Shown piece by piece: positions 49,251 to 62,898 of a stretch of DNA of 64,000 bases (the first letter of the stretch is position 1; every line of letters starts with the position of its first letter). The stretch is from an uncultured Azospirillum sp. Its GTDB lineage: Bacteria > Pseudomonadota > Alphaproteobacteria > RF32 > CAG-239. The notes under the pieces were generated by a model, which saw nothing but the letters and a program-made list of their open reading frames with translations, made no database searches and was not told where the DNA came from. The stretch lies in NCBI GenBank assembly GCA_902489795.1, contig CABUBU010000005.1, positions 166 through 64,165 of the forward strand, read 5' to 3'. A program made the translations under genes and the position numbers.

Positions 49251-49442
49251 TTTCCGTTCCTTAAAAAAACTTTTTCCAACCGGTGTTTTTTTAATGCGGA
49301 TTTTTTTAAATTTCAAATGCTTTTTTCACATTCGGCGACAAATGTTTCCGCCATTTTTCCCCAAAAAAACATACAGGAAAATCCGGCAACGGCACTCGTT
49401 GACTTTTCGGCATATCGTGATATAATAAAAAATGGAGAACAT

Positions 49443-50732
49443 ATGGTTGATTTGAATCGATTAAGAGGCGTCTCTGCACGCTCCGAACCGGAAGGCGACA
49501 TTTCCCCGTCACCGAAAAAAGCGGAATTAAAAGAAAAGATGGAAGCGCTTTCCGTTAGCATCCGCCGCAAAAAAGAGCGGAAAGAACAACCTCCTCCGAC
49601 AAACGGAGAAATGCCGGTTGCCGGCAAATACAATCTGACGCAGGACGAAGCGACCGTCGAAACGGCCTACAAAAATGGAAAAACCAAAACGACCGAAGAT
49701 ATTAAAGTCAGCCGCGTCACAGATACGGTGGAAGAAAACAAGACAGTCGTCAACACCACCGTTATTGCGGAAAAGAAAGAACTGCACCGGAACGGCAAAA
49801 CCGCCGCCGAACACTATTCTTCCAGCCATGTTTCGGAAAAATACAGAGACATCGGCAACAACACCCGCACGGAAACCTCCCGTAACGAAACAACGGAATT
49901 CGACCGCCGGGGACGGGCGAGGAAAATCGAAGAAACGCAAGACACGCAAACGACGTCCGAAGCGGACGCCCTTGACAGAACTCACGGATACGACGGCTCT
50001 CACAGCTGGGGAACTTCGCAAACAATAACTGTTGACTTGGACAAACAGGGACGGGAACGAATTTGGAACACGCACAACGAAAGTTTCGGACTGACCTCAT
50101 CCTTGTCTGACAGTCATACGGAAACCCGCCGCGGCTATGACATAAACGAAATCTCCCCGGAAACAAACAAAGGAATAAAAGAAACCACACAGGCAAGAGG
50201 AACCGCCGACAAAAGAAACCGACAAACAGTATCCGTCGATTCTTATCAATACGGCACAGACGGCAATTTAAAAAAGTCCTGGTGGGGCCGGTTAACCGAC
50301 GGCATAAAGGAAACCTACGGCAAAACAAAAGTTGGCAAAAAAACGACACAAACGGAAATCACCATTGAAAACGGCGAAATTACCGGACAAAGGACAATCA
50401 TCGACAAAAAAGACAACATAAAACGCAAAAAAATAAACAAGGGAATGGCCAAGCTCCGCCTGGCAGGCATACGCAGAAAAATCAACAACAGACTGAAAGA
50501 AACCGGCAACGTGGCGAACATGGAAGAGTATGCCGACAAAATTCCTGCCGTCGACCAAACGGCACGCGCCCCGCTCGGCCTCGCTTTCGATACCATTCCC
50601 GATCGGGAAAAATATGAAGAAAACAAACGGGAAGATCAGGCTCGCAACGATCAGTTGAGCGAGCGCGCCGACAAAATCACGGCAACCGACGTCATAAATA
50701 ATCTGATTCGGGAAAAATACATGAAGGAATAA
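49443..50732 (+). CDS. Hypothetical Thr/Lys/Glu/Arg-rich, probably disordered protein
   Basis: ATG at 49443 with GGAGA upstream. 429 aa, no signal peptide or TM helix, no recognisable domain. Confidence 0.5.
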   Translation: MVDLNRLRGVSARSEPEGDISPSPKKAELKEKMEALSVSIRRKKERKEQPPPTNGEMPVAGKYNLTQDEATVETAYKNGKTKTTEDIKVSRVTDTVEENKTVVNTTVIAEKKELHRNGKTAAEHYSSSHVSEKYRDIGNNTRTETSRNETTEFDRRGRARKIEETQDTQTTSEADALDRTHGYDGSHSWGTSQTITVDLDKQGRERIWNTHNESFGLTSSLSDSHTETRRGYDINEISPETNKGIKETTQARGTADKRNRQTVSVDSYQYGTDGNLKKSWWGRLTDGIKETYGKTKVGKKTTQTEITIENGEITGQRTIIDKKDNIKRKKINKGMAKLRLAGIRRKINNRLKETGNVANMEEYADKIPAVDQTARAPLGLAFDTIPDREKYEENKREDQARNDQLSERADKITATDVINNLIREKYMKE

Positions 50733-51064
50733 TCCGCCGCAAACGACGATTCACTCGGCTGCCGCCTCTTTTTCCGCCGTTTTGCCCGGTTTCCGCACGT
50801 TTTCCTTTGTTTCCTGTCGATATCTCCGGCCGCAGCACGCCGACAACTCCCGTTCAAAAGTTCCTTCCCGCACAAATTCCGAAATTGCCGACGGAGAATT
50901 AAATGCCCAACTCCTTTCTGTCTAAACGCTTTTCCTGATCCGTCCGACCTTCTCCGCGCCGTTTTTCCTATCCCCGTCCGTTTTCCGTACAAATACACAG
51001 ACCTTTACCCAAACAGAAAACTCTTACGCCTTCTGCCAGACAAACGACCCGTTTCCGCCGGCGC

Positions 51065-51623
51065 GGCAAAGCCGACCTGACGGTCGTCCAAAGCAGTTTT
51101 ATCGGCAAGTACACCTCCGTCAATCAACAGGGAACGTCAAACTACGGCGGGGCAATTTACGGCAACGAAAAACAAACGTCAGTCAGACGCTGTTTGAAGG
51201 CAACCACGCGACCCAAACCGGCGGCTCGCTCATAACCGTCGACCCCAAATTTGAATTTCGCTATGTGCACGGACAATCCAAAAACTTCAAAACCGACAAC
51301 GGCGAAATCGGCTCCATCGATTCCACCAGTTCGCTCGTCAGCAGATTTAACCTGCAGACTTCCTACCTGCCGGAAGAGCGAACCTCAAACCGGAAACTGT
51401 TTCTGGAACTAAGACTGTACAACGAATGGATCAGCCGCACCAAAGTCAAATTTGCCGACACGCACCTCACCACTTCCGACTTAAACGGCCTCGGGTTTGA
51501 CGCGTCACTCAGGTTCAACGCCGCCGTTGCCGAAGACGCCTATTGCTGCGGCGCCGTCACCCTGGAAGCCGGTGAACCTATACCTCATACCAGTTGAACG
51601 CCGGCCTGCGGGTCAGCTTCTGA
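51065..51623 (+). pseudogene. Remnant of a Pmp-like autotransporter (frameshifted, internally deleted)
   Basis: Three frames read successively SSFIGKYTS...NYGGAIYGNE, then TLFEGNHATQTGGS...KLFLELRLYNEW...GFDASLRFNAAV, then YTSYQLNAGLRVSF-stop. The first two carry GGAI and FxxN passenger motifs. The third is a terminal beta-barrel signature ending in Phe. Confidence 0.65.
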
Positions 51624-51754
51624 AACGAAGGGAGAACATGCCGGCTAACCGGAAGGTAAATCGATTTTCGTGTTAAAATCCGAAGTTATTCCTTGAAAGT
51701 CAAAGCAATCTTTAATAAGCTCGGGCTAAAAGAATTAACTTAAGAGATGCAGAC

Positions 51755-54472
51755 ATGAACGATACGCAACGAACGATTGAACAGGCACTTTCCTTGCGCG
51801 CCCCGCAAAAGGAAAGCCTCGACATTCTGGTACAAATTTTAAACAAAATCGTCTTAAGCAAAGAGATGTCCGCCGACGAAGCGCTGTGCCTGATTCGGGA
51901 AGTCTGCCCTTCCGTCAAAGACTTCGAACATGCCTTTCCCTGCATTTGCTTCGCCATCGCCACCGGCGTGGGCAAAACCCGGCTGATGGGCGCAATGATC
52001 GCCTATCTGCACGCGGAAAAAGGCATAAAAAATTTCATGGTTCTGGCACCCAACCTGACAATCTACAACAAGCTCAAAACCGACTTCACGCCCAATACCG
52101 AAAAATATGTTTTTCCCGGGTTGAAAGCGCTGGTTGACGTTCCGCAAATCATCACCGGCGACGATTATCATCAGGTCGGCGGTTTGTTTGACAATCCGAA
52201 CGACAACCGTGTCCGCATCAACATTTTCAATATTTCCAAGATCGATTCCGACAAAGACGCACGCGGCATGCCGCGCGTCCGCCGAATGGCCGAATATCTG
52301 GGACAGTCTTATTTCGACTATCTTTCCGGTTTAAAGGATTTGGTTTTGATTATGGACGAAGCGCACCGTTACCGTGCCAATGCCGGTATGGCCGCCGTCA
52401 ATGAACTGCACCCGTTTTTGGGAATTGAACTGACGGCCACCGCCAAATCGACCGGCGCCAAAGGCAAGCCTTTCCGCAACATTGCCTATGAATACAATCT
52501 GGCGCACGCCATTTGCGACGGTTACGTCAAAAAACCGGCAGTCGTCGGCCGCCTGGATTTTAACTGCGACCTGTACGGAAGCGGCAATTCCGAAGCGTTG
52601 GAAAATCTGAAAATCAAAGACGGCATCAAAGTACACGAAAGCATCAAGGCGGAATTGCAGGTTTATGCCGACAACAAAAAAAACAAAACGGTCAAACCTT
52701 TTATGATGATTGTCGCCCAGAACATTGATCATGCGGAACGCATTGAGGCAAAAATAAAAAGCGACGATTTTGAAGACGGCCGCTATAAAGACAAGGTCAT
52801 CGTCGTCAACTCCAAACAAAACGGCGAACTGAAAGACGAAGTCCTGCAACGGCTGCTGGCAATCGAAAACGCCGATGAACCGACCGAAATCGTTATCCAT
52901 GTCAATATGCTGGGCGAAGGCTGGGACGTCAACAACCTTTATACTATTGTACCGCTTCGTGCCGCCGATTCCAAAATTCTGGTTGAACAGACGATCGGCC
53001 GCGGTCTGCGTCTGCCGTTCGGAAAACGAACCGGCGTTGACGTCATCGACCGCCTGCATGTGATTGCGCACGACAAATTTGCGGACATCATCAATGCCGC
53101 TCAGGCGGAGCAATTCGAGTTTCAGCGGGAATATATCGACAACACGGACAGCGGCCTGACGGGAAAAAAGGCGGAAGACAACACCAGTAAACTGGACGAC
53201 GAAGTGAAAAACGGTCATATCGTCGTCACCCGGCCGACACCGGACAAACAGGGTAAACTGCCGGTTTTTGACAACGACGTCAATAAACAGATCGGCGACA
53301 TCGTGCGCGAAGCAATTAACGAAACCAGCCGCTACGCCCTGACCGCCGAAAATCTGTTAACGCCGGATAATCAAAACAGGATTGTCGAAATCGCAACCGA
53401 AAAAATCAAGGAAATCCGGTTGGAAAATTCCGAACTGTCGCTTGAACCGCTGGTTGACGTCAAAGAAACGGCCAAGCGCTATACGGAAAGCTTCATCAAA
53501 CTGAACATTTCCGTCCCGCGGATAAAAATTCTGTACGAACAGGAAGGCGATTTTACTTTTGACGATTTTGACATCGACACCGCGGATTTTGCCGGTTATC
53601 AGCCTTTGCGACCAACAGTTATCATCGGAGAACTGATGGATAAAGGCAAACAGGACGAAATAAAGGCCGAATTTGTCGACTGCCATTCGGACATCACGCA
53701 CTACCTGCTGGTACCGCTGATCGAAGACCCGGCCATCTCATACCAGAAAAACGCCGACTTGCTGTATAAGCTGATTCATCAGGTGATTGATTACATCACT
53801 TCCTATTCCGGCAGCGAACTGAACACCCGGAAGATTCTGTACTTCCACGGTGAAAAACTGGCGCAGAAAATCTGCACGCAGATAAAAGCCCATCTGCGGG
53901 AAGCGCCGATGACCAAACGCGTCAAAATAGACAGCGGGTATGCCGCGGTCACTTCCGCCTCTTACAAAATCAGCACAACGGAAGGACAGGATGCGCTGGA
54001 TATACATGCTTTCGTCCGCGACAAGGAAAAAATCCGCAATTTGGTCTTTACCGGTTTCAACAAATGCCTGTTTGCCAAACAAAAATTCGATTCCAACACC
54101 GAAAAGGAACTGGCGGAAATTCTGGAACGCACGCCGGCCGTGCAAAAATGGTTCAAAATCAACAATGACCGCGCCGGAGAAATTTTTGACATCAAATATT
54201 CGGACGACGATCGACAAATGCACCGTTACTTGCCGGATTTCATCGTTGAAACCGTTGACGCCAAATATATGATCGAAACCAAAGCGGCAAATCAGATGAG
54301 TGACAAGGTCGTGCAGGCCAAAAAAGAAGCCGCCGTCGACTGGTGCAAAATCGCCACCGGTTTTGAACGGGAGCATCACGGCAAACCCTGGCACTACCTG
54401 TTGATCCCCGACACGACCATTGTTGCCGACCGCGGCTTTGACAAACTCGTCAACGATTTTGAGGAAGATTAA
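51755..54472 (+). CDS. res: Type III-like restriction endonuclease/helicase subunit (Res)
   Basis: 905 aa. SF2 helicase motifs I (IATGVGKT), II (IMDEAHRY) and VI (QTIGRGLRL). C-terminal PD-(D/E)xK nuclease motif (YLPDFIVET...YMIETK). Confidence 0.88.
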   Translation: MNDTQRTIEQALSLRAPQKESLDILVQILNKIVLSKEMSADEALCLIREVCPSVKDFEHAFPCICFAIATGVGKTRLMGAMIAYLHAEKGIKNFMVLAPNLTIYNKLKTDFTPNTEKYVFPGLKALVDVPQIITGDDYHQVGGLFDNPNDNRVRINIFNISKIDSDKDARGMPRVRRMAEYLGQSYFDYLSGLKDLVLIMDEAHRYRANAGMAAVNELHPFLGIELTATAKSTGAKGKPFRNIAYEYNLAHAICDGYVKKPAVVGRLDFNCDLYGSGNSEALENLKIKDGIKVHESIKAELQVYADNKKNKTVKPFMMIVAQNIDHAERIEAKIKSDDFEDGRYKDKVIVVNSKQNGELKDEVLQRLLAIENADEPTEIVIHVNMLGEGWDVNNLYTIVPLRAADSKILVEQTIGRGLRLPFGKRTGVDVIDRLHVIAHDKFADIINAAQAEQFEFQREYIDNTDSGLTGKKAEDNTSKLDDEVKNGHIVVTRPTPDKQGKLPVFDNDVNKQIGDIVREAINETSRYALTAENLLTPDNQNRIVEIATEKIKEIRLENSELSLEPLVDVKETAKRYTESFIKLNISVPRIKILYEQEGDFTFDDFDIDTADFAGYQPLRPTVIIGELMDKGKQDEIKAEFVDCHSDITHYLLVPLIEDPAISYQKNADLLYKLIHQVIDYITSYSGSELNTRKILYFHGEKLAQKICTQIKAHLREAPMTKRVKIDSGYAAVTSASYKISTTEGQDALDIHAFVRDKEKIRNLVFTGFNKCLFAKQKFDSNTEKELAEILERTPAVQKWFKINNDRAGEIFDIKYSDDDRQMHRYLPDFIVETVDAKYMIETKAANQMSDKVVQAKKEAAVDWCKIATGFEREHHGKPWHYLLIPDTTIVADRGFDKLVNDFEED

Positions 54473-54561
54473 TGTAAAATATTTCATACACAGCAGTGTC
54501 AAGCAACATTGACATTTCGCATAAAATGTCGTATATTTACATTATATCGAGGAGCACGACA

Positions 54562-55335
54562 ATGACAAATGTTTTAAGAAGCCTGAGAGAACAAAAAGGC
54601 ATCTCTCAGGAAGAGTTAGCGTCTGAATTAAAAATAAGCCGTCAGACCCTGAGCAAATACGAAAACGAAGAAACTAAATTTTCTTTAGACATCATAAAAA
54701 AACTGGCCAGATTTTTTGATGTCGATTACTCATGCTTCATCGACAACAAAATGCCGCCGGAAACAACCTATAACATTATAGGAAACACGCCCAAAGAAAA
54801 CAAGACCGATATCCGCATCAACATTCCGCAGGAAAATATCAACAAATTCAAACAGGTTCTGCTTTATATCCTTAACAAAGTCGGCGCCAAACCGAATGTC
54901 GGGCAAACGGTAATTTACAAGCTTCTTTACTTCATAGATTTCGATTATTACGAAATATACGAAGAACAGCTGATGGGACTGAAATATATCAAAAATACAT
55001 ACGGCCCGACGCCGGTTGATTTTGCCAAATTAATAAAACAGATGGAAGACGACGGTTCTTTGGAAGAAATAAAAACCAAATATTTCAACCATGACCAAAC
55101 CAAATATCTTCCCCGCATACAACCGGATTTGTCCCTGCTTTCCGGACAGGAGCTGGCGCATATCGACAAAGAACTGGAACGCCTTGCCGGCCGGACGGGA
55201 AAAGAACTGTCGGAATTCTCGCATAAGGACATTCCGTGGATCGGCGCGGAAATGAACGAGGTTTTGGAGTACGAGGCCGTTTTTTACAGAACCCCGGAAA
55301 CTTCTGTTCGGGAGTATGACGAAGCAGATGATTAA
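54562..55335 (+). CDS. XRE-HTH plus Panacea (DUF4065/SocA-like) domain antitoxin
   Basis: ATG at 54562 with GGAG 8 nt upstream. HTH LREQKGISQEELASELKISRQTLSKYE. C-terminal domain with IYKLLYFIDFDYYEIYEEQLMGLKYIKNTYGPTPVDF, typical of DUF4065. Confidence 0.8.
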   Translation: MTNVLRSLREQKGISQEELASELKISRQTLSKYENEETKFSLDIIKKLARFFDVDYSCFIDNKMPPETTYNIIGNTPKENKTDIRINIPQENINKFKQVLLYILNKVGAKPNVGQTVIYKLLYFIDFDYYEIYEEQLMGLKYIKNTYGPTPVDFAKLIKQMEDDGSLEEIKTKYFNHDQTKYLPRIQPDLSLLSGQELAHIDKELERLAGRTGKELSEFSHKDIPWIGAEMNEVLEYEAVFYRTPETSVREYDEADD

Positions 55336-55699
55336 CTACGTAACTGTTCCCGAGTTTGACAAGGATTTCAAAACCGTGTCAAAAAAATTCCGAACTTTGG
55401 AAAAAGATTTCGGACATATGAAAAAATACACGATAGAAACGTTTTACGAAAAAGGTGTCCCGACAACGGCGTTTGTCCCCATTGAAGGTTTTTGTGGAGA
55501 AAACTATACTTCCAACAAAATGCGCAAGTTTTCCTGCCAGTCGTTAAAAGGCAGAGGTTCGGCATCGGGTATCAGGGTTATTTTCATCTGGGAAGAAGAA
55601 ACGCGAAAAATAACTTTTATCGAAATCTATTTTAAGGCAGATCAAGCCAACGAAAACAAAGAACGCCTGCAAAAATTTATAAAAGAAAATTTCGGATAG
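55316..55699 (+). CDS. RelE/ParE-superfamily-like toxin (putative)
   Basis: 127 aa (or 123 from ATG 55328). Overlaps the antitoxin stop by 20 or 8 nt. The C-terminal block GIRVIFIWEEETRKITFIEIYFK resembles the R-hh-Y...I-x-h-h-x-h core of RelE/ParE toxins (motif memory). Confidence 0.55.
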   Translation: MTKQMINYVTVPEFDKDFKTVSKKFRTLEKDFGHMKKYTIETFYEKGVPTTAFVPIEGFCGENYTSNKMRKFSCQSLKGRGSASGIRVIFIWEEETRKITFIEIYFKADQANENKERLQKFIKENFG

Positions 55700-55710
55700 G
55701 ATAATTCAAT

Positions 55711-56469
55711 ATGTATTGTTACTTGTTCTATGAGTTCTATACTCCGACACAAACATCTCATTCAATTTACAACTGGTGGAAAGATATCTGGTTGCCGGCG
55801 GCCGGTGCAATAGCAATTCCATTACTGGTTTGGTGGTTAAGTTGGCTTTTTGGAGCAAGCCGTGCTGAACAACAAAAGGAATTGAGAGATTTGAGAAATA
55901 ATCTTAATTTGCTTTCATCTATACTACTATCAACCTTTCAATCTCTGCTGTCATTAAAAGAAAATTTTGAAAACTGTCAAAAAATATATCCGTTAAAAAT
56001 TACTCCTTATGATAAAATAAATAAAATTGACAAATGTTTATTCATTGATTTTCCAATACTGAATAATATTGATATTTCTAAATACTCCCCTTGTATAAAT
56101 GCATATGGTAATTTTGTTATCGACTTAGTGAATATTAAACAAGGTTGTCGCATATTAAACGAAATGATTTTGCACAGAAATGAAGTGTTAAAATCAATCG
56201 GTTCCTGTGAGGATGAGCACATGAAAAAACTCAGAATTTTTGATTTTATTGCCGAAGATTCTGAAAATAATATTTCTAATCTGATGAGAACGAACAAACT
56301 AATACTGGAAATAAAAGAACTGGTTGATAAAATAAATATTTTAAAAACAAAAATAAAAGGCCTAAACTTAGAAGAAGTAACATTTGATGAAAACTCTTTA
56401 CAGCAATTTAAAAATATAAAATTAGAAATTGAGAAATTTATTCAAGATACAAAGGAACCAAATAAATGA
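55711..56469 (+). CDS. Orphan single-pass membrane protein translationally coupled to mod
   Basis: 252 aa, very AT-rich. One TM helix (WLPAAGAIAIPLLVWWLSWLF) followed by a helical/coiled Asn/Lys/Ile/Leu-rich domain. The stop overlaps the mod ATG (ATGA at 56466-56469). No family recognised. Confidence 0.65.
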   Translation: MYCYLFYEFYTPTQTSHSIYNWWKDIWLPAAGAIAIPLLVWWLSWLFGASRAEQQKELRDLRNNLNLLSSILLSTFQSLLSLKENFENCQKIYPLKITPYDKINKIDKCLFIDFPILNNIDISKYSPCINAYGNFVIDLVNIKQGCRILNEMILHRNEVLKSIGSCEDEHMKKLRIFDFIAEDSENNISNLMRTNKLILEIKELVDKINILKTKIKGLNLEEVTFDENSLQQFKNIKLEIEKFIQDTKEPNK

Positions 56470-58787
56470 CTGAAAAATTGCAGAGACTGGAACTGACATG
56501 GCCGGGGAAGGAAGACCGATTTAACCCGGAACCGCGGATACTGCTGGAAGACAAGGGAAAGTCCTATTCCAAACCTGTAATTTCTTCCCCTTTGCGTGAA
56601 AAAGAACGCTCTTCCGCCATTTCCTCCCCCTTGAGGAGGGAGGATAAAGGAGAGGGTGAACAACCCAGTTTCCTTCCTTTAAGTAGCAAAGAATGCTCTT
56701 CCGTCATTTCCTCCCCCTTGAGGGGGGAGGATAAAGGAGAGGGTGAACAACCCAGTTTCCTTCCTTTAAGTAGCAAAGAATGCTCTTCCGTCATTTCCTC
56801 CCCCTTGAGGGGGGAGGATAAAGGAGAGGGTGAACAACCTAACCTCCTTTCTTTAGCAAAAAAAATGAGGCATAATCCGACAGAAGCCGAAAATAAAATG
56901 TGGCAAATTCTGCGTAACAATCAATTAGGTTATAAAATACGACGTCAACATCAGATAGGCCAATACATAGTTGATTTTATATGTTTGGAAAAAAAATTAA
57001 TTATTGAATGCGATGGCGGCCAACATAATGAAACCGTCGACAAGGAAAGAACACTTTTTTTGGAAAATGAAGGCTTTAGAGTTATTCGTTTTTGGAATAA
57101 TGAAATATTAAATAATATAGAAGGATGTTGGGAGATAATTCAAAAAAGCCTGAATGATTGTACCCCTCACCCTAACCCTCTCCCCCAAGGGGCGAGGAAT
57201 TCCATTGTCCTTGAAACCTCTCCCTTGAGGGAAGAAGGCGACACTTTAGTGTCGAGCGAGGGTGATAAGTTAAATCTACTTAAGACGAAGAGAATTCAAC
57301 CGACTTTCGACAATATGCTGATCCACGGCGACAACCTGCTGGCCTTGAAAGCCCTGGAGCAGGACTATACCGGTAAAATCAAATGTATTTACATAGATCC
57401 GCCGTACAATACAGGTAACGCTTTCGAACATTATGACGACGGACTGGAACACTCCATCTGGCTTTCGCTGATGAGAGACAGATTGGAGATTTTGAGAAGA
57501 TTATTAAGTAATGACGGAGGCAGTATTTGGATTTCCATTGATGCGGACGAAAGTCATTACCTGAAAGTCCTTTGTGATGAAATTTTTGGCCGTCAATGTT
57601 TTGTTGATGAAGTTATCTGGCAACGAGCCTTTGCTCCTGTAAATTTAAAGAAAACGCTTTCACGTTCTCACGATACAATTTTAGTATATTGCAAAAATCC
57701 TATTAATTTTATCTTAAATACATTACCAAGAAGTGATAAACAATGTGAAAATTATAAAAATCCAGACAATGACCCCAGAGGTGCATGGACATCGGCAGAT
57801 TGTACTGTGGGACCTGTAGTTGAAGAAAAACTCTATGAAATAATAACTCCTGGGGGACGTTCTGTATTTCCTCCCGAAGGACGTTGTTGGTTATTTTCTA
57901 AAGATAGATTTGAAGAAGTGGTAGCAGATAATCGTATATGGTTTGGAAAAAATGGCAATAATGCACCTCGTGTAAAAAAATTTATATCAGAAGTCAAAGG
58001 CGGGGTTGTTGCGACAACGCTCTGGACCCGTGATGAATGTGGGGATAATCAGGAAGCTAAAAGAGAAATCAAGGCTTTATTTCCTGATGAAAAAAATCCG
58101 TTCGATACACCTAAACCCGAACGTTTAATTCAAAGAATCTTAACATTAGCATCCAACCCCGGCGATCTTGTTTTAGACAGCTTTTTAGGTTCAGGAACGA
58201 CTGCCGCCGTAGCGCAAAAAATGGGACGTCGCTGGATTGGGGTGGAAATGGGCGACCATGTTTACACACATTGCATTCCCCGCCTGAAAAAAGTAATCGA
58301 CGGCGAAGATCAGGGCGGCATCACCAAAACCGTCAACTGGCAGGGCGGCGGCGGTTTCAAATTCTATGAACTGGCTTCTTCCCTGATCGTGACCGACAAA
58401 TACGGCCAGCAGATCATTTCCAAAGAATACAACGCCGACATGCTGGCCGAAGCCATGTGCAAAATCTTAGGCTATCACTATAAACCGGATAAGGAAATTT
58501 ACTGGAAACAGGGCTTTTCTTCCGAAAAGAACTTTATCTATACCACCACCATGAGCTTGCAGGAAAGTTCGCTTGACCGCCTCGCCGAAGAAATCGGCGA
58601 CAACAACCTGCTGATTTGTTGCAGCGCCTTTGTCGGCAACAGCAGGATATATCCTAACATCTCGGTCAAAAAAATTCCCGCCGCTATCCTCAAAAAATGC
58701 GAATGGGGCCGCGAAGGCTACCCCCTCAACCTCCGCAACTACCACCCAACCGACGAAGAATTTGAATTCGAGGAGGAAGAGGAATAA
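56466..58787 (+). CDS. mod: Type III-like N6-adenine/N4-cytosine DNA methyltransferase (Mod) with an in-frame DUF559 endonuclease-domain insertion
   Basis: N-terminus LELTWPGKEDRFNPEPRILLED, motif IV IYIDPPYNTGN, motif I DSFLGSGTTAAVAQ (beta-class order). Residues ~35-265 are repeats plus a DUF559/Vsr-like domain (MWQILRNNQLGYKIRRQHQIGQYIVDFICLEKKLIIECDGGQH...RVIRFWNNEIL). Confidence 0.88.
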   Translation: MTEKLQRLELTWPGKEDRFNPEPRILLEDKGKSYSKPVISSPLREKERSSAISSPLRREDKGEGEQPSFLPLSSKECSSVISSPLRGEDKGEGEQPSFLPLSSKECSSVISSPLRGEDKGEGEQPNLLSLAKKMRHNPTEAENKMWQILRNNQLGYKIRRQHQIGQYIVDFICLEKKLIIECDGGQHNETVDKERTLFLENEGFRVIRFWNNEILNNIEGCWEIIQKSLNDCTPHPNPLPQGARNSIVLETSPLREEGDTLVSSEGDKLNLLKTKRIQPTFDNMLIHGDNLLALKALEQDYTGKIKCIYIDPPYNTGNAFEHYDDGLEHSIWLSLMRDRLEILRRLLSNDGGSIWISIDADESHYLKVLCDEIFGRQCFVDEVIWQRAFAPVNLKKTLSRSHDTILVYCKNPINFILNTLPRSDKQCENYKNPDNDPRGAWTSADCTVGPVVEEKLYEIITPGGRSVFPPEGRCWLFSKDRFEEVVADNRIWFGKNGNNAPRVKKFISEVKGGVVATTLWTRDECGDNQEAKREIKALFPDEKNPFDTPKPERLIQRILTLASNPGDLVLDSFLGSGTTAAVAQKMGRRWIGVEMGDHVYTHCIPRLKKVIDGEDQGGITKTVNWQGGGGFKFYELASSLIVTDKYGQQIISKEYNADMLAEAMCKILGYHYKPDKEIYWKQGFSSEKNFIYTTTMSLQESSLDRLAEEIGDNNLLICCSAFVGNSRIYPNISVKKIPAAILKKCEWGREGYPLNLRNYHPTDEEFEFEEEEE
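56565..57265 (+). other. In-frame insertion module inside mod: hairpin repeats - DUF559 domain - hairpin repeats
   Basis: DUF559 domain at ~56865-57160. Left flank: 87-bp tandem repeats, each with the hairpin CCTCCCCC-TTGA-GGGGGAGG. Right flank: hairpins CCTCTCCCCCAAGGGGCGAGG, CTCTCCCTTGAGGGAAGAAG and CGACACTTTAGTGTCG. The mod sequence resumes at ...FDNMLIHGDNLLALKAL. Confidence 0.7.
56578..56860 (+). repeat. ~3.2 copies of an 87-bp (29-codon) tandem repeat
   Basis: AGGATAAAGGAGAGGGTGAACAACC starts at 56641, 56728 and 56815 (period exactly 87), with a diverged partial copy at 56578-56640. The array is open in frame on both strands. Confidence 0.9.
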
Positions 58788-58810
58788 CAAATTCCGCACG
58801 CTCCCCTTTC

Positions 58811-58903: not shown

Positions 58904-59640
58904 GTCATGCCTCCGACGGGCAAAAAGCCCGGCGGATCAGGCATCTTTTGCCCCTCCGGTCATCACCTTTGTTCAGGCATCTTTTGAAAAAGGAAAAACA
59001 TTGTATAATCCCTAAACTCGCTCGCTCACGCTCCCTCGCGGGATGACAGTCTGAAGAGGGTTCACGCTCCCTCGCGGGATGACAACCTCAAATTGTCATG
59101 CCTCCGACGGGCGAAAAGCCCGGCGGATCAGGCATCTTTTGCCCCTCCGGTCATCACCTTTGTTCAGGCATCTTTTGAAAAAGGAAAAACATTGTATAAT
59201 CCCTAAACTCGGTCGCTCACGCTCCCTCGCGGGATGACAACCTCAAATTGCCATGCCTCCGACGGGCAAAAAGCCCGGCGGATCAGGCATCTTTTGCCCT
59301 TCTGTTACTCCCTTTGAACAGGCTCCTCCTGAAAAAGGAAAAAACATTGTAAGATCCCTAAACTCGGTCGCTCACGCTCCCTCGCGGGATGACAACTTCA
59401 AATTGTCATGCCTCCGACAGGCGAAAAGCCCGGCGGATCAGGCATCTTTTGCCCCTCCGGTCATCACCTTTGTTCAGGCATCTTTTAAAAAAGGAAAAAC
59501 ATTGTAAGATCCCTAAACTCGGTCGCTCCCACTCCCTCGCGGGATGACAGTCTGAAGAGGGTTCACGCTCCCTCGCGGGATGACAGTCTGAAGAGGGTTC
59601 ACGCTCCCTCGCGGCAGAATGACGGCTTGGAGTATCTGCT
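58904..59640. repeat. Four tandem copies of a 155-191-bp unit with nested 36-bp sub-repeats
   Basis: Units start at 58904, 59095, 59250 and 59405 with G(T/C)CATGCCTCCGAC(G/A)GGC(A/G)AAAAGCCCGGCGGATCAGGCATCTTTTGCCC. Each ends in one to three copies of TCACGCTCCCTCGCGGGATGACAGTCTGAAGAGGGT. There are no unique spacers. Confidence 0.92.
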
Positions 59641-59728: not shown

Positions 59729-60007
59729 TCAAAATAATCGTTCGTACAAATCAGACCACTCAGGGTTGTTTTCTTCTATCAATCTTATCTTCACTTTCCG
59801 AAACGCTTTTTTCAAAAACTTTTCCCGGGCAATAGCCTCATTTTCGCCAACAATCTCCTCAAAATAAACCAGCCGGATCAGATTATAACGCTTGGTAAAC
59901 CCTTCAAACAGCTTGTTCCTGTGCTCATAAACCCTTCTCGTCAGGTCTTTTGTCACTCCGACATACAGCGTTCCGCCTTTTTTGTTACTCATAATGTAAA
60001 CGTACAT
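59729..60007 (-). CDS. Small GIY-YIG nuclease family protein (COG2827/UPF0213-like)
   Basis: 92 aa: MYVYIMSNKKGGTLYVGVTKDLTRRVYEH...LVYFE...AIAREKFLK. The ATG shares one nucleotide with the SNF2 stop (TGATG at 60005-60009). Confidence 0.85.
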   Translation of the reverse strand: MYVYIMSNKKGGTLYVGVTKDLTRRVYEHRNKLFEGFTKRYNLIRLVYFEEIVGENEAIAREKFLKKAFRKVKIRLIEENNPEWSDLYERLF

Positions 60008-62898
60008 CAGCTTTTTACTTCCCAGGTAACATCAAACACCTGTTCAATGGTGTAATCCAATTTCAGACTGCGCTTTTTGCCGCCGATGAGGCGGTTGCAC
60101 TTCTTTTCCAGCTCACGCTCAATGTCAAAAGTATTGAACTCGTTATCGTTCATTTCTTTTTGCAGACGTTTGATTTCTTCATCCAAAGCCAGTTTTTTTG
60201 CAAAATCTTTCTCCAACTTAAACTGGCGTTTCAGATTGCCGATCTTATTTTTCATCTTTTCGCCTTTCAGATGAATGGCCTGTTTTTCATCCGCCAACCA
60301 GCGAGTAAGCTTGTCTACCTCAATTTTTAACAAAACATCGACCCGGTGCTTTTCGGATTTCTCATATTCGGCAATATTCCTTTCGTGCAGCCGCCGAATC
60401 AAATCCTGATACCCCATCTCAACCGGCGCAGCCGTTTTCCGCACATTATCAAAAATGTCTTCCGGTTTCAAATTTAACGCTTCGCCGTGATCGTCAATAA
60501 CTGCCGACAACAGACGAAAAGACTTTTCCGGCGCATTTTGCCTGAACAAAGACAAAATCAGCCGCCCGCGTTGTCCGGATTTTAACTTGTCTCCCGCCTT
60601 CAACAACAAATGGCACGCCTCGACCGGCTGCGCCAGCGCCTCCCGTAAAATAATCCGCCCGAACTCACTGTCCGGATTGTACGGCGTAGCTCCCCGCCAA
60701 ACGGCTTTGCGATCCTGCGGAGAAAGAAAACGATTATTGTCGCGGCTTGAAAAATCCAGACAGAAATTGAAATTCTTATTGAAAACAATGTCCGACGGCC
60801 GGTCAAAAACCTGTTCTTCAAAAGGGCCGAACACCTGCCGCGCCGGATTGATAAACATATCAGGATGATTTTTTTCCAGCATGATAACCGACAAATCCCA
60901 GAAAATTTGCTTGCGGCGTTCCAAATAATCTTCAACCCTCCGCTTGATGACCTGCAGTTTTTCCTGTGTGGTCGGGTTCAGGTTTTCCAGAACCAACTGG
61001 CGCGTTTCTTCCATTTTGGCATCACGCTTCACGCCAAGGCTTGCCTGTAATTCGTCAAAAGCACGGTTAATTTCCTCGGTTGTCCGGCACAATTCAAATA
61101 TGGAGGCCACCGCACGCTCAAAATCCACGCCGTCGGACAATGTGCCCAAAATTTCGTCGCTGGCACCGAATACATCGTCAAACAATTTAAATTTATATTG
61201 CAAAATATCATAAAGGCGCACATCGGCAAGATTCTGTTTGTTGATAAAATTGATGATTACAACATCGCATTTTTGCTTATAACGATGAATACGCCCGATT
61301 CTCTGTTCTATTCTTTGCGGATTCCACGGCAAATCGTAATTGACCAGCAGCGAACAAAACTGCAAATTCAGCCCCTCGGCCGCCGCCTCGGTGGCAATCA
61401 TGATTTCCGCCTCTTCCCTGAAAGCCGCAACCAGAGCTTTTTTCATATCGTTGGCTCGCGAACCGGTCAGCTCCGCCGAGTGATTTTCGACAAAATCGTT
61501 GTAAATCCGATTGCAAAGCGGGGAATTGTTCTGACCGTTAAAGGTGATGATTTTATCCTTAAAACCGTGAGCCGAAAGATAATCGAAAAGATAATTCAAA
61601 GTCCGGTTGCTTTCCGTAAAAATAATTACCTTGCGCAAACCTCCCTTTTCCCTGATTTTTTCAAATCCCCGGTTGATCGCGCCGACAAGCTTTTCCGTCT
61701 TGCCGTCAACTTCGATTTTACCCGCCTTGTCAATCAACGACTGCAAAAATTCCTTTTCGGCTTTAAGGTCAGCATCCGTCGGATAATTCTTAGCATAAGC
61801 GTTGCGGCAGCGATCGTCAAAATCCGACAGGGAATCCTGATATTCTTCCAGCAAATCTTCATCAAACACAATAAGATCACCGGTGTTTCCGCCAAGTTTC
61901 TCAATACGGCACAGCCTTTCCATCAACTTTTCCAATGTTCCTTTGACCGCCGCGGTGGAGGAACTCATCAATTTGCGTATCATCAGAACAATCAGCGTAC
62001 GATAACGGGTGGTAACGGCAATCTTTGAAACATCCTGAATATAAGCCGAAACTTCCCGGTAAAGTTCTTCTTCCGCTGGAGTCGGATTAAACGCAACAGT
62101 CATTGCCTCGCGATTGGTATATTTAATATACTCCGAAACATCTTTGCGCAAAGTGCGATGCAAAACGCATTTTAAACGTTCTTTCAGCTCAATATGATGC
62201 CGTTCGGAATACAGGTAATTTTCCATAAAAGAATATTCATTGCCCAAAATATGCGGATCAATAATCGTTACCAGCGAAAAAATGTCCATCAGAGAATTTT
62301 GAATGGGCGTTGCCGTCAACAAAAGCTTTTTCTTACCGTAAAAAGCCTCATTAATCCCGTCAGCCGTTTTAGTCTTGCCTTTATAAAAATTACGGAGCTT
62401 ATGCGCTTCGTCCAAAACGACCAGATCCCAATCATGTTGTTTCATGCAATCTTTTAGCTGCACCGCACAATTATACGAACAAACCGTCACGCCTTTAAAC
62501 AACAGCGGATTTTCCTTTTCCGACTTCAAAGCCTTGCCATAAATCCCGGCCTCAATAACCCGGGTCGGCAAATTAAATTTTTCCTGCATTTCAGCCTGCC
62601 ATTGCTGGCAAAGACTTGCCGGCGCAACAACCAGAACGGAAGTTCGGCCGCGTGAAAAATATTCGGAAACGACGATACCTGCCTCAATCGTCTTTCCCAA
62701 ACCGACTTCATCGGCCAGAATAACACCTTGCGACAACGGGGATTTCAAGGCAAACAACGCCGCTTCGATTTGATGCGGATTCATATCAATTTTAGATGTT
62801 TCCAATGAACCGGAAATGTTTCCCATATCCGCCTGGTTATTGGAAGCTAAAACTTCCAAAGCCCAATATTTTGCTTTTATTTCTTCTGTCGTTATCAT
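60007..62898 (-). CDS. SNF2/RAD54-family helicase with ~350-aa uncharacterised C-terminal region
   Basis: 963 aa. Motifs I ADEVGLGKTIEAG, II LVVLDEAHKLRN, III LLLTATPIQNSL and VI QRIGRIHRYKQ. The C-terminal third has no recognised motif and ends in a coiled-coil-like Lys/Glu-rich segment. Confidence 0.9.
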   Translation of the reverse strand: MITTEEIKAKYWALEVLASNNQADMGNISGSLETSKIDMNPHQIEAALFALKSPLSQGVILADEVGLGKTIEAGIVVSEYFSRGRTSVLVVAPASLCQQWQAEMQEKFNLPTRVIEAGIYGKALKSEKENPLLFKGVTVCSYNCAVQLKDCMKQHDWDLVVLDEAHKLRNFYKGKTKTADGINEAFYGKKKLLLTATPIQNSLMDIFSLVTIIDPHILGNEYSFMENYLYSERHHIELKERLKCVLHRTLRKDVSEYIKYTNREAMTVAFNPTPAEEELYREVSAYIQDVSKIAVTTRYRTLIVLMIRKLMSSSTAAVKGTLEKLMERLCRIEKLGGNTGDLIVFDEDLLEEYQDSLSDFDDRCRNAYAKNYPTDADLKAEKEFLQSLIDKAGKIEVDGKTEKLVGAINRGFEKIREKGGLRKVIIFTESNRTLNYLFDYLSAHGFKDKIITFNGQNNSPLCNRIYNDFVENHSAELTGSRANDMKKALVAAFREEAEIMIATEAAAEGLNLQFCSLLVNYDLPWNPQRIEQRIGRIHRYKQKCDVVIINFINKQNLADVRLYDILQYKFKLFDDVFGASDEILGTLSDGVDFERAVASIFELCRTTEEINRAFDELQASLGVKRDAKMEETRQLVLENLNPTTQEKLQVIKRRVEDYLERRKQIFWDLSVIMLEKNHPDMFINPARQVFGPFEEQVFDRPSDIVFNKNFNFCLDFSSRDNNRFLSPQDRKAVWRGATPYNPDSEFGRIILREALAQPVEACHLLLKAGDKLKSGQRGRLILSLFRQNAPEKSFRLLSAVIDDHGEALNLKPEDIFDNVRKTAAPVEMGYQDLIRRLHERNIAEYEKSEKHRVDVLLKIEVDKLTRWLADEKQAIHLKGEKMKNKIGNLKRQFKLEKDFAKKLALDEEIKRLQKEMNDNEFNTFDIERELEKKCNRLIGGKKRSLKLDYTIEQVFDVTWEVKS

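Follow-up and report, generated by a model that had tools for sequence, protein, structure and literature searches.

The window analyzed here is a stretch of 64,000 nucleotides (nt) from an uncultured alphaproteobacterium (contig CABUBU010000005.1 of GenBank assembly GCA_902489795.1). Near its end, on the minus strand, a gene for an SNF2-family ATPase of 963 amino acids (aa) is followed directly by a gene for a 92-aa GIY-YIG nuclease, and the two meet in a TGATG overlap in which the A at position 60007 is common to the TGA of the first and the ATG of the second. A first-pass annotation had described these two open reading frames (ORFs) and their overlap, and both genes and the shared nucleotide are real. 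The genes beside SNF2 encode a Type III-like Res, an HTH-Panacea protein, a 127-aa ORF, a 252-aa membrane ORF (orf252), and a Type III-like Mod methyltransferase (Table 1); a scan for promoters and terminators yielded nothing decisive. The first-pass annotation had seen in the pair the translocase-plus-nuclease logic of a defense system, a view that comparison with related loci did not support: the constant partners of SNF2 are Mod and Res, while the GIY-YIG gene is mostly absent, or pseudogenized beside an intact SNF2. We consider it fairly probable that SNF2 is the third gene of a Type III-like restriction-modification (R-M) system and that the GIY-YIG gene is an old, dispensable, Ssn-like rider with hairpins of its own, not the partner of SNF2.

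Linkage of SNF2 to a Type III-like Mod/Res pair

Type III R-M is recognized by an N6/N4 methyltransferase of the Type III group and an SF2 helicase/endonuclease encoded together, and by their profile matches the Mod and Res genes are predicted to be such a pair (PADLOC MTase_III, PDLC03636, 641 bits to Mod; REase_III, PDLC03648, 579 bits to Res). The TnsA-like nuclease domain of Res is at its C terminus. Among close orthologues of SNF2, with C termini 47 to 99% identical, Mod was present in every locus with a full-length SNF2 gene and enough flanking sequence, and Res, which is 70 to 96% identical in orthologous loci, was present wherever the flank reached. The association extends to a wider alphaproteobacterial clade, found in 10 of 300 genomes and recognized by a partial DrmD_b match of 615 to 722 bits, where Mod and Res lay beside SNF2 in all nine loci with flank, mostly in the collinear order SNF2-(small gene)-Mod-(passenger)-Res. 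Among distant metagenome loci, which were contigs found with a profile of the SNF2 C-terminal module alone and having at least 2.5 kb downstream, a same-strand Mod followed SNF2 in 31/31. SNF2 is thus convergent with Mod in the window lineage and collinear with it in the distant loci. Co-occurrence of SNF2 with the res/mod pair, which the first-pass annotation had proposed as a check, is therefore borne out, and gene neighborhoods predict that SNF2 belongs to a Type III-like Mod/Res module as its conserved third gene. Its product may act as an accessory double-stranded DNA (dsDNA) translocase of the Mod/Res enzyme.

The locus shares with classical Type III systems of the EcoP15I type a PF01555 Mod and a Res combining an SF2 helicase with a PD-(D/E)XK nuclease, but differs from them in the constantly linked third gene, in the res...mod order convergent with SNF2, and in the passengers embedded among the genes. 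An uncharacterized operon of similar composition, SNF2 (1065 to 1095 aa)-DUF4391-Type III-like Mod-Res, was found in 5/5 alphaproteobacterial DUF4391 loci examined (L056 to L060). It resembles the present locus in its SNF2 protein of about 1,000 aa, small protein, Type III-like Mod, and Res, but its SNF2 cores are only 25 to 33% identical and the window locus has no DUF4391. No description of the SNF2/Type III triad, and nothing relevant on DUF4391, was found in a limited literature search. A RapA/DrmD-like SNF2 with its own C-terminal module, constantly tied to Type III-like Mod and Res both in gut Alphaproteobacteria and as far afield as environmental metagenomes, makes the role of a remodeler-type translocase in restriction directly testable.

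Some SNF2 copies are decayed. The only close locus lacking Mod and Res, with neither found within 10 kb (G021; L005/L011), has an SNF2 truncated at about residue 816; elsewhere, one copy carries an in-frame TAG and another is a 340-residue fragment (L196/G516; L202/G343). Passengers also occur in or beside the wider-clade operons, where GmrSD separates Mod from Res and Fic or DUF1828 adjoins SNF2 (L074 13428-15233; L081 6878-8602; L077 11585-12841; L079 10874-12061; L078 6586-7374).

The SNF2 ATPase core

Pfam places SNF2-rel_dom (PF00176) at residues 42 to 291 (E = 3.7e-35; 121.9 bits versus a cut-off of 24.9) and Helicase_C (PF00271) at residues 445 to 540 (64.9 bits versus 23.5). The motifs GLGKT (66-70), DEAH (163-166), TATP (195-198), and QRIGRIHRY (532-540; pattern QRIGRxHR at 532-539) show no change across 31 homologues, and the protein is predicted to be an intact RapA/DrmD-like SNF2 dsDNA translocase.

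The best named match of the ATPase core was NF038318 (DrmD_b), at 631.9 bits over profile positions 23 to 653 of 868 with a cut-off of 950; the PADLOC DrmD profile PDLC02619 scored 629 bits, and NF038317 scored 279 bits against a cut-off of 610. The likeness to DrmD, the DISARM class 1 helicase, thus covers the ATPase core (residues 32 to 663; 632 and 629 bits). Identity with DISARM DrmD was rejected on the subthreshold scores to NF038318 and NF038317 and because the C-terminal third falls outside the profile match. Matches to DrmA, DrmB, and DrmC were lacking among the scanned neighbors (49317-58787), and DUF1998/MZB (PF09369) had none genome-wide in this 95% complete genome, in which controls responded. 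The subthreshold DrmD scores and the lack of DUF1998 rule out a DISARM system; the partners here are instead a Type III-like Mod and Res, with no drmA, drmB, or drmC nearby.

Lobe 1 of Escherichia coli RapA aligned with the core at 34% identity (hhalign; E = 5e-29). As a RapA equivalog the protein was rejected, with 160.5 bits to NF003426 against a cut-off of 576. RapA (HepA), an RNA-polymerase-recycling SNF2 ATPase (PDB 8spg and 6bog), resembles it in lobe 1 and in C-terminal fold but has an N-terminal domain for which there is no room here, because the core begins at residue 32; moreover, RapA belongs to a transcription context, whereas this gene lies in an R-M context.

The C-terminal module

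The C-terminal third had been described as an unassigned region ending in a Lys/Glu-rich, coiled-coil-like stretch. The end is indeed predicted to form a long coiled coil, but the region as a whole is a conserved and confidently modeled module. It is kept in 56 homologues and can be aligned down to 17 to 21% identity with SNF2 proteins of collinear SNF2-Mod-Res operons, with invariant positions that include G136, G139, and an E-x-D-K-L-x-x-W-x-x-D block. Modeled alone with its alignment in AlphaFold2 (AF2), it reached a predicted local distance difference test (pLDDT) score of 88.9, with a helix of 36 residues leading into an alpha/beta domain, then a hairpin whose two helices span about 65 and 46 residues, and a final beta strand; DSSP assigned the hairpin helices to residues 831-895 and 899-944, which are 192-256 and 260-305 of the C-terminal model. 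The full-length AF2 model was poor (pLDDT 65), and its fold search recovered SNF2 cores only.

A Foldseek search of the PDB with the C-terminal model gave three hits with E values of at most 0.001, all of them E. coli RapA (E = 2e-5 to 1e-4; template modeling [TM] scores of 0.30 to 0.36; probability 1.00 at E = 2e-5). Neither a profile search of PDB sequences nor hhalign against RapA returned more than coiled-coil noise, and the resemblance to RapA is therefore a fold-level lead. Neither a nuclease motif nor a nuclease fold was found in the module. On the model, the C-terminal 324 aa are predicted to be a structural module of their own family, resembling the C-terminal half of RapA, rather than an effector domain.

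The only Pfam match beyond about residue 660 was a subthreshold, 47-residue coiled-coil hit to DUF4391 (PF14335; 16.9 bits versus a cut-off of 29.9). This hit and the location of orf252 had hinted at a link, but DUF4391 was rejected as an identity for both the SNF2 tail and orf252 (hhalign probabilities of 2.4% and 0.2%). A search of 1.8 billion proteins also returned small proteins matching the C terminus; these belong to no Pfam family and resemble fragments.

The GIY-YIG gene and its junction

PF01541 spans residues 1 to 73 of the 92-aa protein (E = 3.9e-16), which has lost none of the positions conserved at 90% or more in an alignment of 26 homologues, the catalytic residues included. The gene is single copy in the genome. 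A search begun from the GIY-YIG side recovered about 26 protein clusters that form a clade with identities of at least 70%. The five homologues of this clade that were looked up all lie directly after an SNF2 orthologue that is convergent on Mod-Res. Counting the window, the GIY-YIG start lies 0 to 4 nt past the SNF2 stop in six of six SNF2 lineages, the other five junctions being TAGaATG, TAGaagATG, TAAaattATG, TAAgaatATG, and TAAggatATG. The first-pass annotation's claim of an operon gains from this recurrence: because the tight junction recurs, the pair appears to be a conserved, co-expressed unit in the six lineages, and the two genes are predicted from the junction to be translationally coupled.

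Between lineages the synonymous divergence (dS) of the GIY-YIG gene is saturated while the nonsynonymous divergence (dN) is 0.09 to 0.18, and the dN/dS ratio was 0.085 and 0.11 in the two measurable pairs. GIY-YIG identity (73 to 86%) tracks the identity of the SNF2 C terminus (61 to 70%) with r = 0.85, so its inheritance looks mostly vertical. The six-lineage junction, saturated dS, and low dN/dS together mark the gene as old, functional, and faithful to its junction. More distant homologues in related genomes lie 6 to 7 nt after unrelated genes, namely those for HsdS, SufBD, an AAA ATPase, and a solute-binding protein. In L188 (2152-5023), SNF2 was called as two ORFs (587 and 372 aa) beside an intact GIY-YIG gene; this is a single assembly, to be read with caution, and the split may reflect either a frameshift or faulty assembly.

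Presence, absence, and decay of the GIY-YIG gene

A first census of 17 orthologous lineages found no GIY-YIG gene at the junction; it was biased, and the search from the GIY-YIG side overturned the reading of a one-off insertion drawn from it. A species census covered 282 species-representative genomes of the family, of which 19 have SNF2 and about 14 have the full gene with flank; only the window genome, 1 of these approximately 14, has a GIY-YIG gene after SNF2. The gene is likewise absent from about 15 lineages at 56 to 81% identity and from about 40 distant loci of a profile-based metagenome sample. On a tree of SNF2 C termini, the lineages bearing it are scattered, requiring seven changes, no better than shuffled labels, and three clades contain both GIY-YIG-bearing and GIY-YIG-free alleles whose SNF2 DNA is 96 to 98% identical.

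Variation is found among near-identical host alleles as well. Contigs with at least 97% identical SNF2, not counting the window and L088, have the gene intact in one case, as a remnant in eight, and not at all in about 12; adding those two makes two intact copies, nine remnants, and about 12 without. In the alignment with L088, the near-repeats GCTGATG and GCTATTG bound a 175-bp deletion that leaves the ATG and an out-of-frame last third of the gene. The same remnant recurs in L101 to L104, L111 to L113, and L120, nine contigs in all, with SNF2 at least 98% identical. In L088, SNF2, Mod, orf252, and a toxin-antitoxin pair are intact beside the remnant, as is Res as far as the contig extends. 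Judged from these alleles, the GIY-YIG gene is likely dispensable, a facultative member of the locus.

The first-pass annotation had held that two findings together would speak against a functional coupling. One of them was made, in that orthologues end at the same SNF2 stop with no GIY-YIG gene; the other was not, as copies of the gene or its repeats are not scattered elsewhere in the genome.

Hairpin repeats and likeness to Ssn nucleases

Ssn proteins are single-domain GIY-YIG endonucleases, site specific and active on single-stranded DNA (ssDNA) only, that cut beside cognate NTS/SRM hairpins (Chenal et al. 2025, PMC11893778). SsnA of Neisseria has 94 aa and belongs to CDD family cd10448, and the hairpins, with the layout CGTC-AT-stem-loop-stem-AT-C, usually flank the gene (PMC11893778). 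All six SNF2-linked GIY-YIG lineages have lineage-specific GTC-AT...hairpin...AT-C repeats in a noncoding stretch 3' of the gene. The window hairpin, GTC-ATGCCTCCGACGGGC-GAAAA-GCCCGGCGG..AGGCAT-C, folds as DNA at -15.7 kcal/mol (z = -4.5); the L187 hairpin, GTC-ATCCCTAATATTTTGAGC-TTT-GCTCAAAATATTAGGGAT-C, has a z score of -8 and that of L097 a z score of -4.5, while the second window element, GTCATCCCGCGAGGGAGCGTG, folds weakly (z = -1.1). GTCAT occurs at 7 to 22 per kb in slots with the GIY-YIG gene versus 0 to 2.6 per kb in eleven slots without it, an enrichment of about 8-fold where chance would give about 2 per kb. A generic genome scan for GTCAT plus a hairpin was uninformative, giving 122 background hits and missing bulged hairpins.

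The published SRM pattern adjoins 6 of 29 GIY-YIG homologues in related genomes; 87 kb of sequence gave 10 hits, none farther than 300 bp from the gene. These SRM-flanked homologues are 45 to 55% identical to the window protein. Because canonical SRM hits adjoin its homologues, the gene family appears to be the SRM-associated one, and we read the window protein as a putative Ssn-like nuclease. Like the Ssn proteins, it is a GIY-YIG-only protein of about 92 to 94 aa without a DNA-binding domain, encoded beside repeated GTC-AT...AT-C hairpins whose sequence is particular to each lineage. It differs in that the window has no match to the published SRM pattern, in that the repeats are on the 3' side only and beside the gene only, not dispersed through the genome, and in that the gene is fused translationally to the end of a defense gene and has been kept through SNF2 divergence. 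The window slot shares neither repeats nor other DNA with the GIY-YIG homologues of relatives. Among solved members of the UPF0213/YhbQ-type GIY-YIG group, 1ZG2 (BH0048) matched the GIY-YIG protein at E = 0.0011 and 22.6 bits.

The slot between the SNF2 and Mod stop codons

Against L008, an orthologous locus with 99% identity, the SNF2 stop codon is the exact point at which homology ends and the Mod stop codon the exact point at which it returns, with a RelA/SpoT-like gene in the interval. Homology with L088 also breaks at both stop codons, and the same breakpoints were found in two other clades, in which homology resumes at 82 to 86% identity in the Mod 3' half. Cargo of this slot elsewhere, nearly always on the Mod strand, comprises a RelA/SpoT-domain gene, an ApeA_NTD1 gene, a trypsin-like protease, and unannotated sets of one or two genes; the GIY-YIG gene is the sole resident on the SNF2 strand, and it coexists with other cargo in L097 and L098. 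The slot looks like an exchange site for defense cargo. As a precise site of cassette exchange, it would be useful for finding new defense genes. Cargo was noted at L008 12957-14012, L082 8954-10009, L092 7870-9396, L095 7895-8770, and in L010, L012 to L016, L090, and L094, with some of these genes overlapping the SNF2 stop.

Sequence comparison further suggests that the Mod specificity half may be exchanged together with the slot. Compared with near-identical strains, the Mod 3' half (57296-58788) is only 85 to 92% identical, much more diverged than the segment from 51218 to 56570 (96 to 97%), which holds res, orf252, the toxin-antitoxin pair, and the 5' end of Mod. Mod of the window also carries a DUF559 insert at residues 37 to 253, approximately (56565-57295), which is confined to loci that have the GIY-YIG gene, those being the window and the clade of L100 and L184 to L186; none of about 60 loci without the gene has the insert. 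Upstream (5') of the insert are two to three copies of CGTCATTTCCTCCCCC-TTGA-GGGGGGAGGAT, with a GTCAT-plus-hairpin layout like that of the GIY-YIG repeats.

Table 1. Coordinates of features at the SNF2/GIY-YIG locus (window numbering)
Feature	Position	Strand	Basis or remark
SNF2-family ATPase gene, 963 aa	60007..62898	-	Stop TGA 60007-60009; Pfam SNF2-rel_dom, Helicase_C, ResIII
ATPase core, residues 32-663, DrmD_b/RapA-like	60910..62805	-	NF038318, PADLOC PDLC02619, hhalign to RapA
Conserved C-terminal module, residues 640-963 (324 aa)	60010..60981	-	Homologue alignment and AF2 model
Predicted antiparallel coiled-coil hairpin, residues 831-944 (Lys/Glu-rich)	60067..60408	-	DSSP on predicted models
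TGATG stop/start overlap	60005..60009	-	Reverse complement of catca
Single-domain GIY-YIG nuclease gene, 92 aa, Ssn-like	59729..60007	-	PF01541, E = 3.9e-16
175-bp segment deleted in sister strains (GIY-YIG codons 2 to about 59)	59830..60004	-	L088 alignment
Hypervariable cargo slot between convergent Mod and SNF2 stop codons	58788..60006	.	Homology breaks at both stops
Hairpin GTC-ATGCCTCCGACGGGC-GAAAA-GCCCGGCGG..AGGCAT-C, four copies (58904, 59095, 59250, 59405)	58904..59446	+	4 matches versus 0 expected; NTS/SRM-like architecture
GTCATCCCGCGAGGGAGCGTG, six copies, on the GIY-YIG strand; degenerate GTCAT...GGGAT element	59027..59584	-	6 matches versus 0 expected
Tandem array bearing both repeat types (155-bp period, 3.1 copies; 36-bp period, 2.3 copies)	59062..59614	.	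Tandem Repeats Finder
Type III-like Mod methyltransferase with DUF559 insert	56466..58787	+	PF01555, E = 3e-46; PADLOC MTase_III
Type III-like Res (SF2 helicase and TnsA-like PD-(D/E)XK nuclease)	51755..54472	+	ResIII; PADLOC REase_III, 579 bits

Interpretation

In the model that we favor, the GIY-YIG gene would owe its expression to translational coupling at the end of SNF2, and the Ssn-like nuclease with its hairpin array would form a separate unit lodged in the slot between the convergent SNF2 and Mod stops. Such a unit would use the 3' end of an expressed gene, much as an insertion sequence (IS)-like element might, would keep its junction over the long term under purifying selection, and would be lost or replaced when recombination in the conserved flanks exchanges the slot. 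The gene structures, synteny counts, breakpoints, deletion derivative, signal of selection, and accompanying repeats are seen directly in the sequences. By analogy with Ssn enzymes, the nuclease may cut the neighboring hairpins as ssDNA, and the gene may persist as a selfish or domesticated IS-like module. The caveat of the first-pass annotation, that small GIY-YIG genes are often selfish passengers, thus comes closer to the evidence than its defense-pair proposal; the accompanying suggestion of an insertion at the stop codon fares less well, the gene being an old and site-faithful resident with hairpins of its own, not a recent arrival. A stop/start overlap with a nuclease gene is, by this example, insufficient for calling a helicase-nuclease defense pair. 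The locus also offers a natural-history case for Ssn nucleases, in which one nuclease/hairpin module is held at a single junction and intact, broken, and replaced states are found in human-gut populations.

Several observations weigh against this model. The hairpins occur solely beside the gene, so that their role as the nuclease target is inferred only; the published degenerate SRM pattern had no hits in the window, its count in the genome is that expected by chance, and the genome is not SRM-rich. The GIY-YIG gene co-diverges with SNF2, and no transposition or homing event was seen. Long purifying selection, fidelity to a single site (5/5), and the conserved coupling would also fit an optional partner of SNF2, and the co-occurrence of DUF559 with the GIY-YIG gene might mark a functional variant of the system, in which case the two would not be mere passengers. 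Finally, the RapA likeness of the C-terminal module is at the level of fold only, with TM scores of 0.30 to 0.36.

One alternative is that the GIY-YIG protein is an optional accessory nuclease which, having no DNA-binding domain of its own, is recruited by the C-terminal module of SNF2 and delivered by it to DNA in a sub-variant of the system. The tight junction kept in six lineages, a dN/dS of about 0.1 over a time that saturates dS, the occurrence of the clade of at least 70% identity at this site only, among the homologues looked up, and the presence in the same loci of another acquired nuclease domain, the DUF559 insert of Mod, are all in its favor, and fused SNF2-nuclease defense proteins do exist: HmaA joins SNF2 with NOV_C, and ZorD with an Mrr-like domain (PMC11232893). 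These proteins likewise combine translocase and nuclease, but here SNF2 has no nuclease domain, and the nuclease is encoded apart from it, by a dispensable 92-aa gene accompanied by repeats. An accessory nuclease is also difficult to reconcile with the lack of the gene in most orthologues and in all distant SNF2-Mod-Res operons, with its pseudogenization in nine near-identical contigs, and with the intact copy of L188 beside a split SNF2. Hairpin repeats always travel with the gene, which an SNF2 effector would not need, and Res already supplies a nuclease. We regard this alternative as rather unlikely.

A more far-reaching version of the rider model holds that the nuclease and its hairpin array are what makes the site a point of cassette exchange, in that the GTC-AT hairpins would be nicked as ssDNA when the DNA is replicated or taken up, setting off recombination between strains that swaps the defense cargo together with the Mod specificity half. 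Hairpins of this kind, CGTCATTTCCTCCCCC-TTGA-GGGGGGAGGAT, also border the DUF559 insert of mod, which is confined to loci bearing the GIY-YIG gene. If true, a nuclease-driven generator of diversity would be built into a three-component SNF2-Mod-Res restriction system; we hold this to be a speculative and quite improbable extension.

A classical free-standing homing endonuclease, cutting empty SNF2 3' ends in dsDNA and being copied in by repair (intronless homing), would account for the fixed site, for the patchy distribution among near-identical host alleles, for the coexistence of intact, degenerate, and absent states in one population, and for purifying selection on intact copies. Enzymes of the Seg or I-TevI type, however, have about 200 to 250 aa and a DNA-binding domain, whereas this protein has 92 aa and the catalytic domain only. 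The co-divergence of the GIY-YIG gene with SNF2 also argues against homing, as do the "empty" alleles, which hold other cargo and in which the whole slot is exchanged with the Mod 3' half; the repeats, moreover, point to hairpin or ssDNA recognition as in Ssn (PMC11893778). Homing seems very improbable to us. A recent, one-off, strain-specific selfish insertion at the stop codon agreed with the empty junctions of the first 17 orthologous lineages and with the single copy in the genome, but it is refuted by the five further lineages with the gene, at 73 to 84% identity, at the same junction and by saturated dS, which leave it next to no probability.

Other features of the locus

The gene orf252 (55711-56469) overlaps the start of Mod; its product has an N-terminal transmembrane helix and no family match, and it is conserved in place, at 33 to 40% identity, across several orthologous loci. 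On its SNF2 side, the island often adjoins serine recombinase, integrase, or phage-tail genes (L088 1-1040; L090 483-2039; L097 1980-3922; L092 1-4922), and one homologue is annotated from Caudoviricetes (P0025). This setting suggests that the module travels on mobile elements or prophages.

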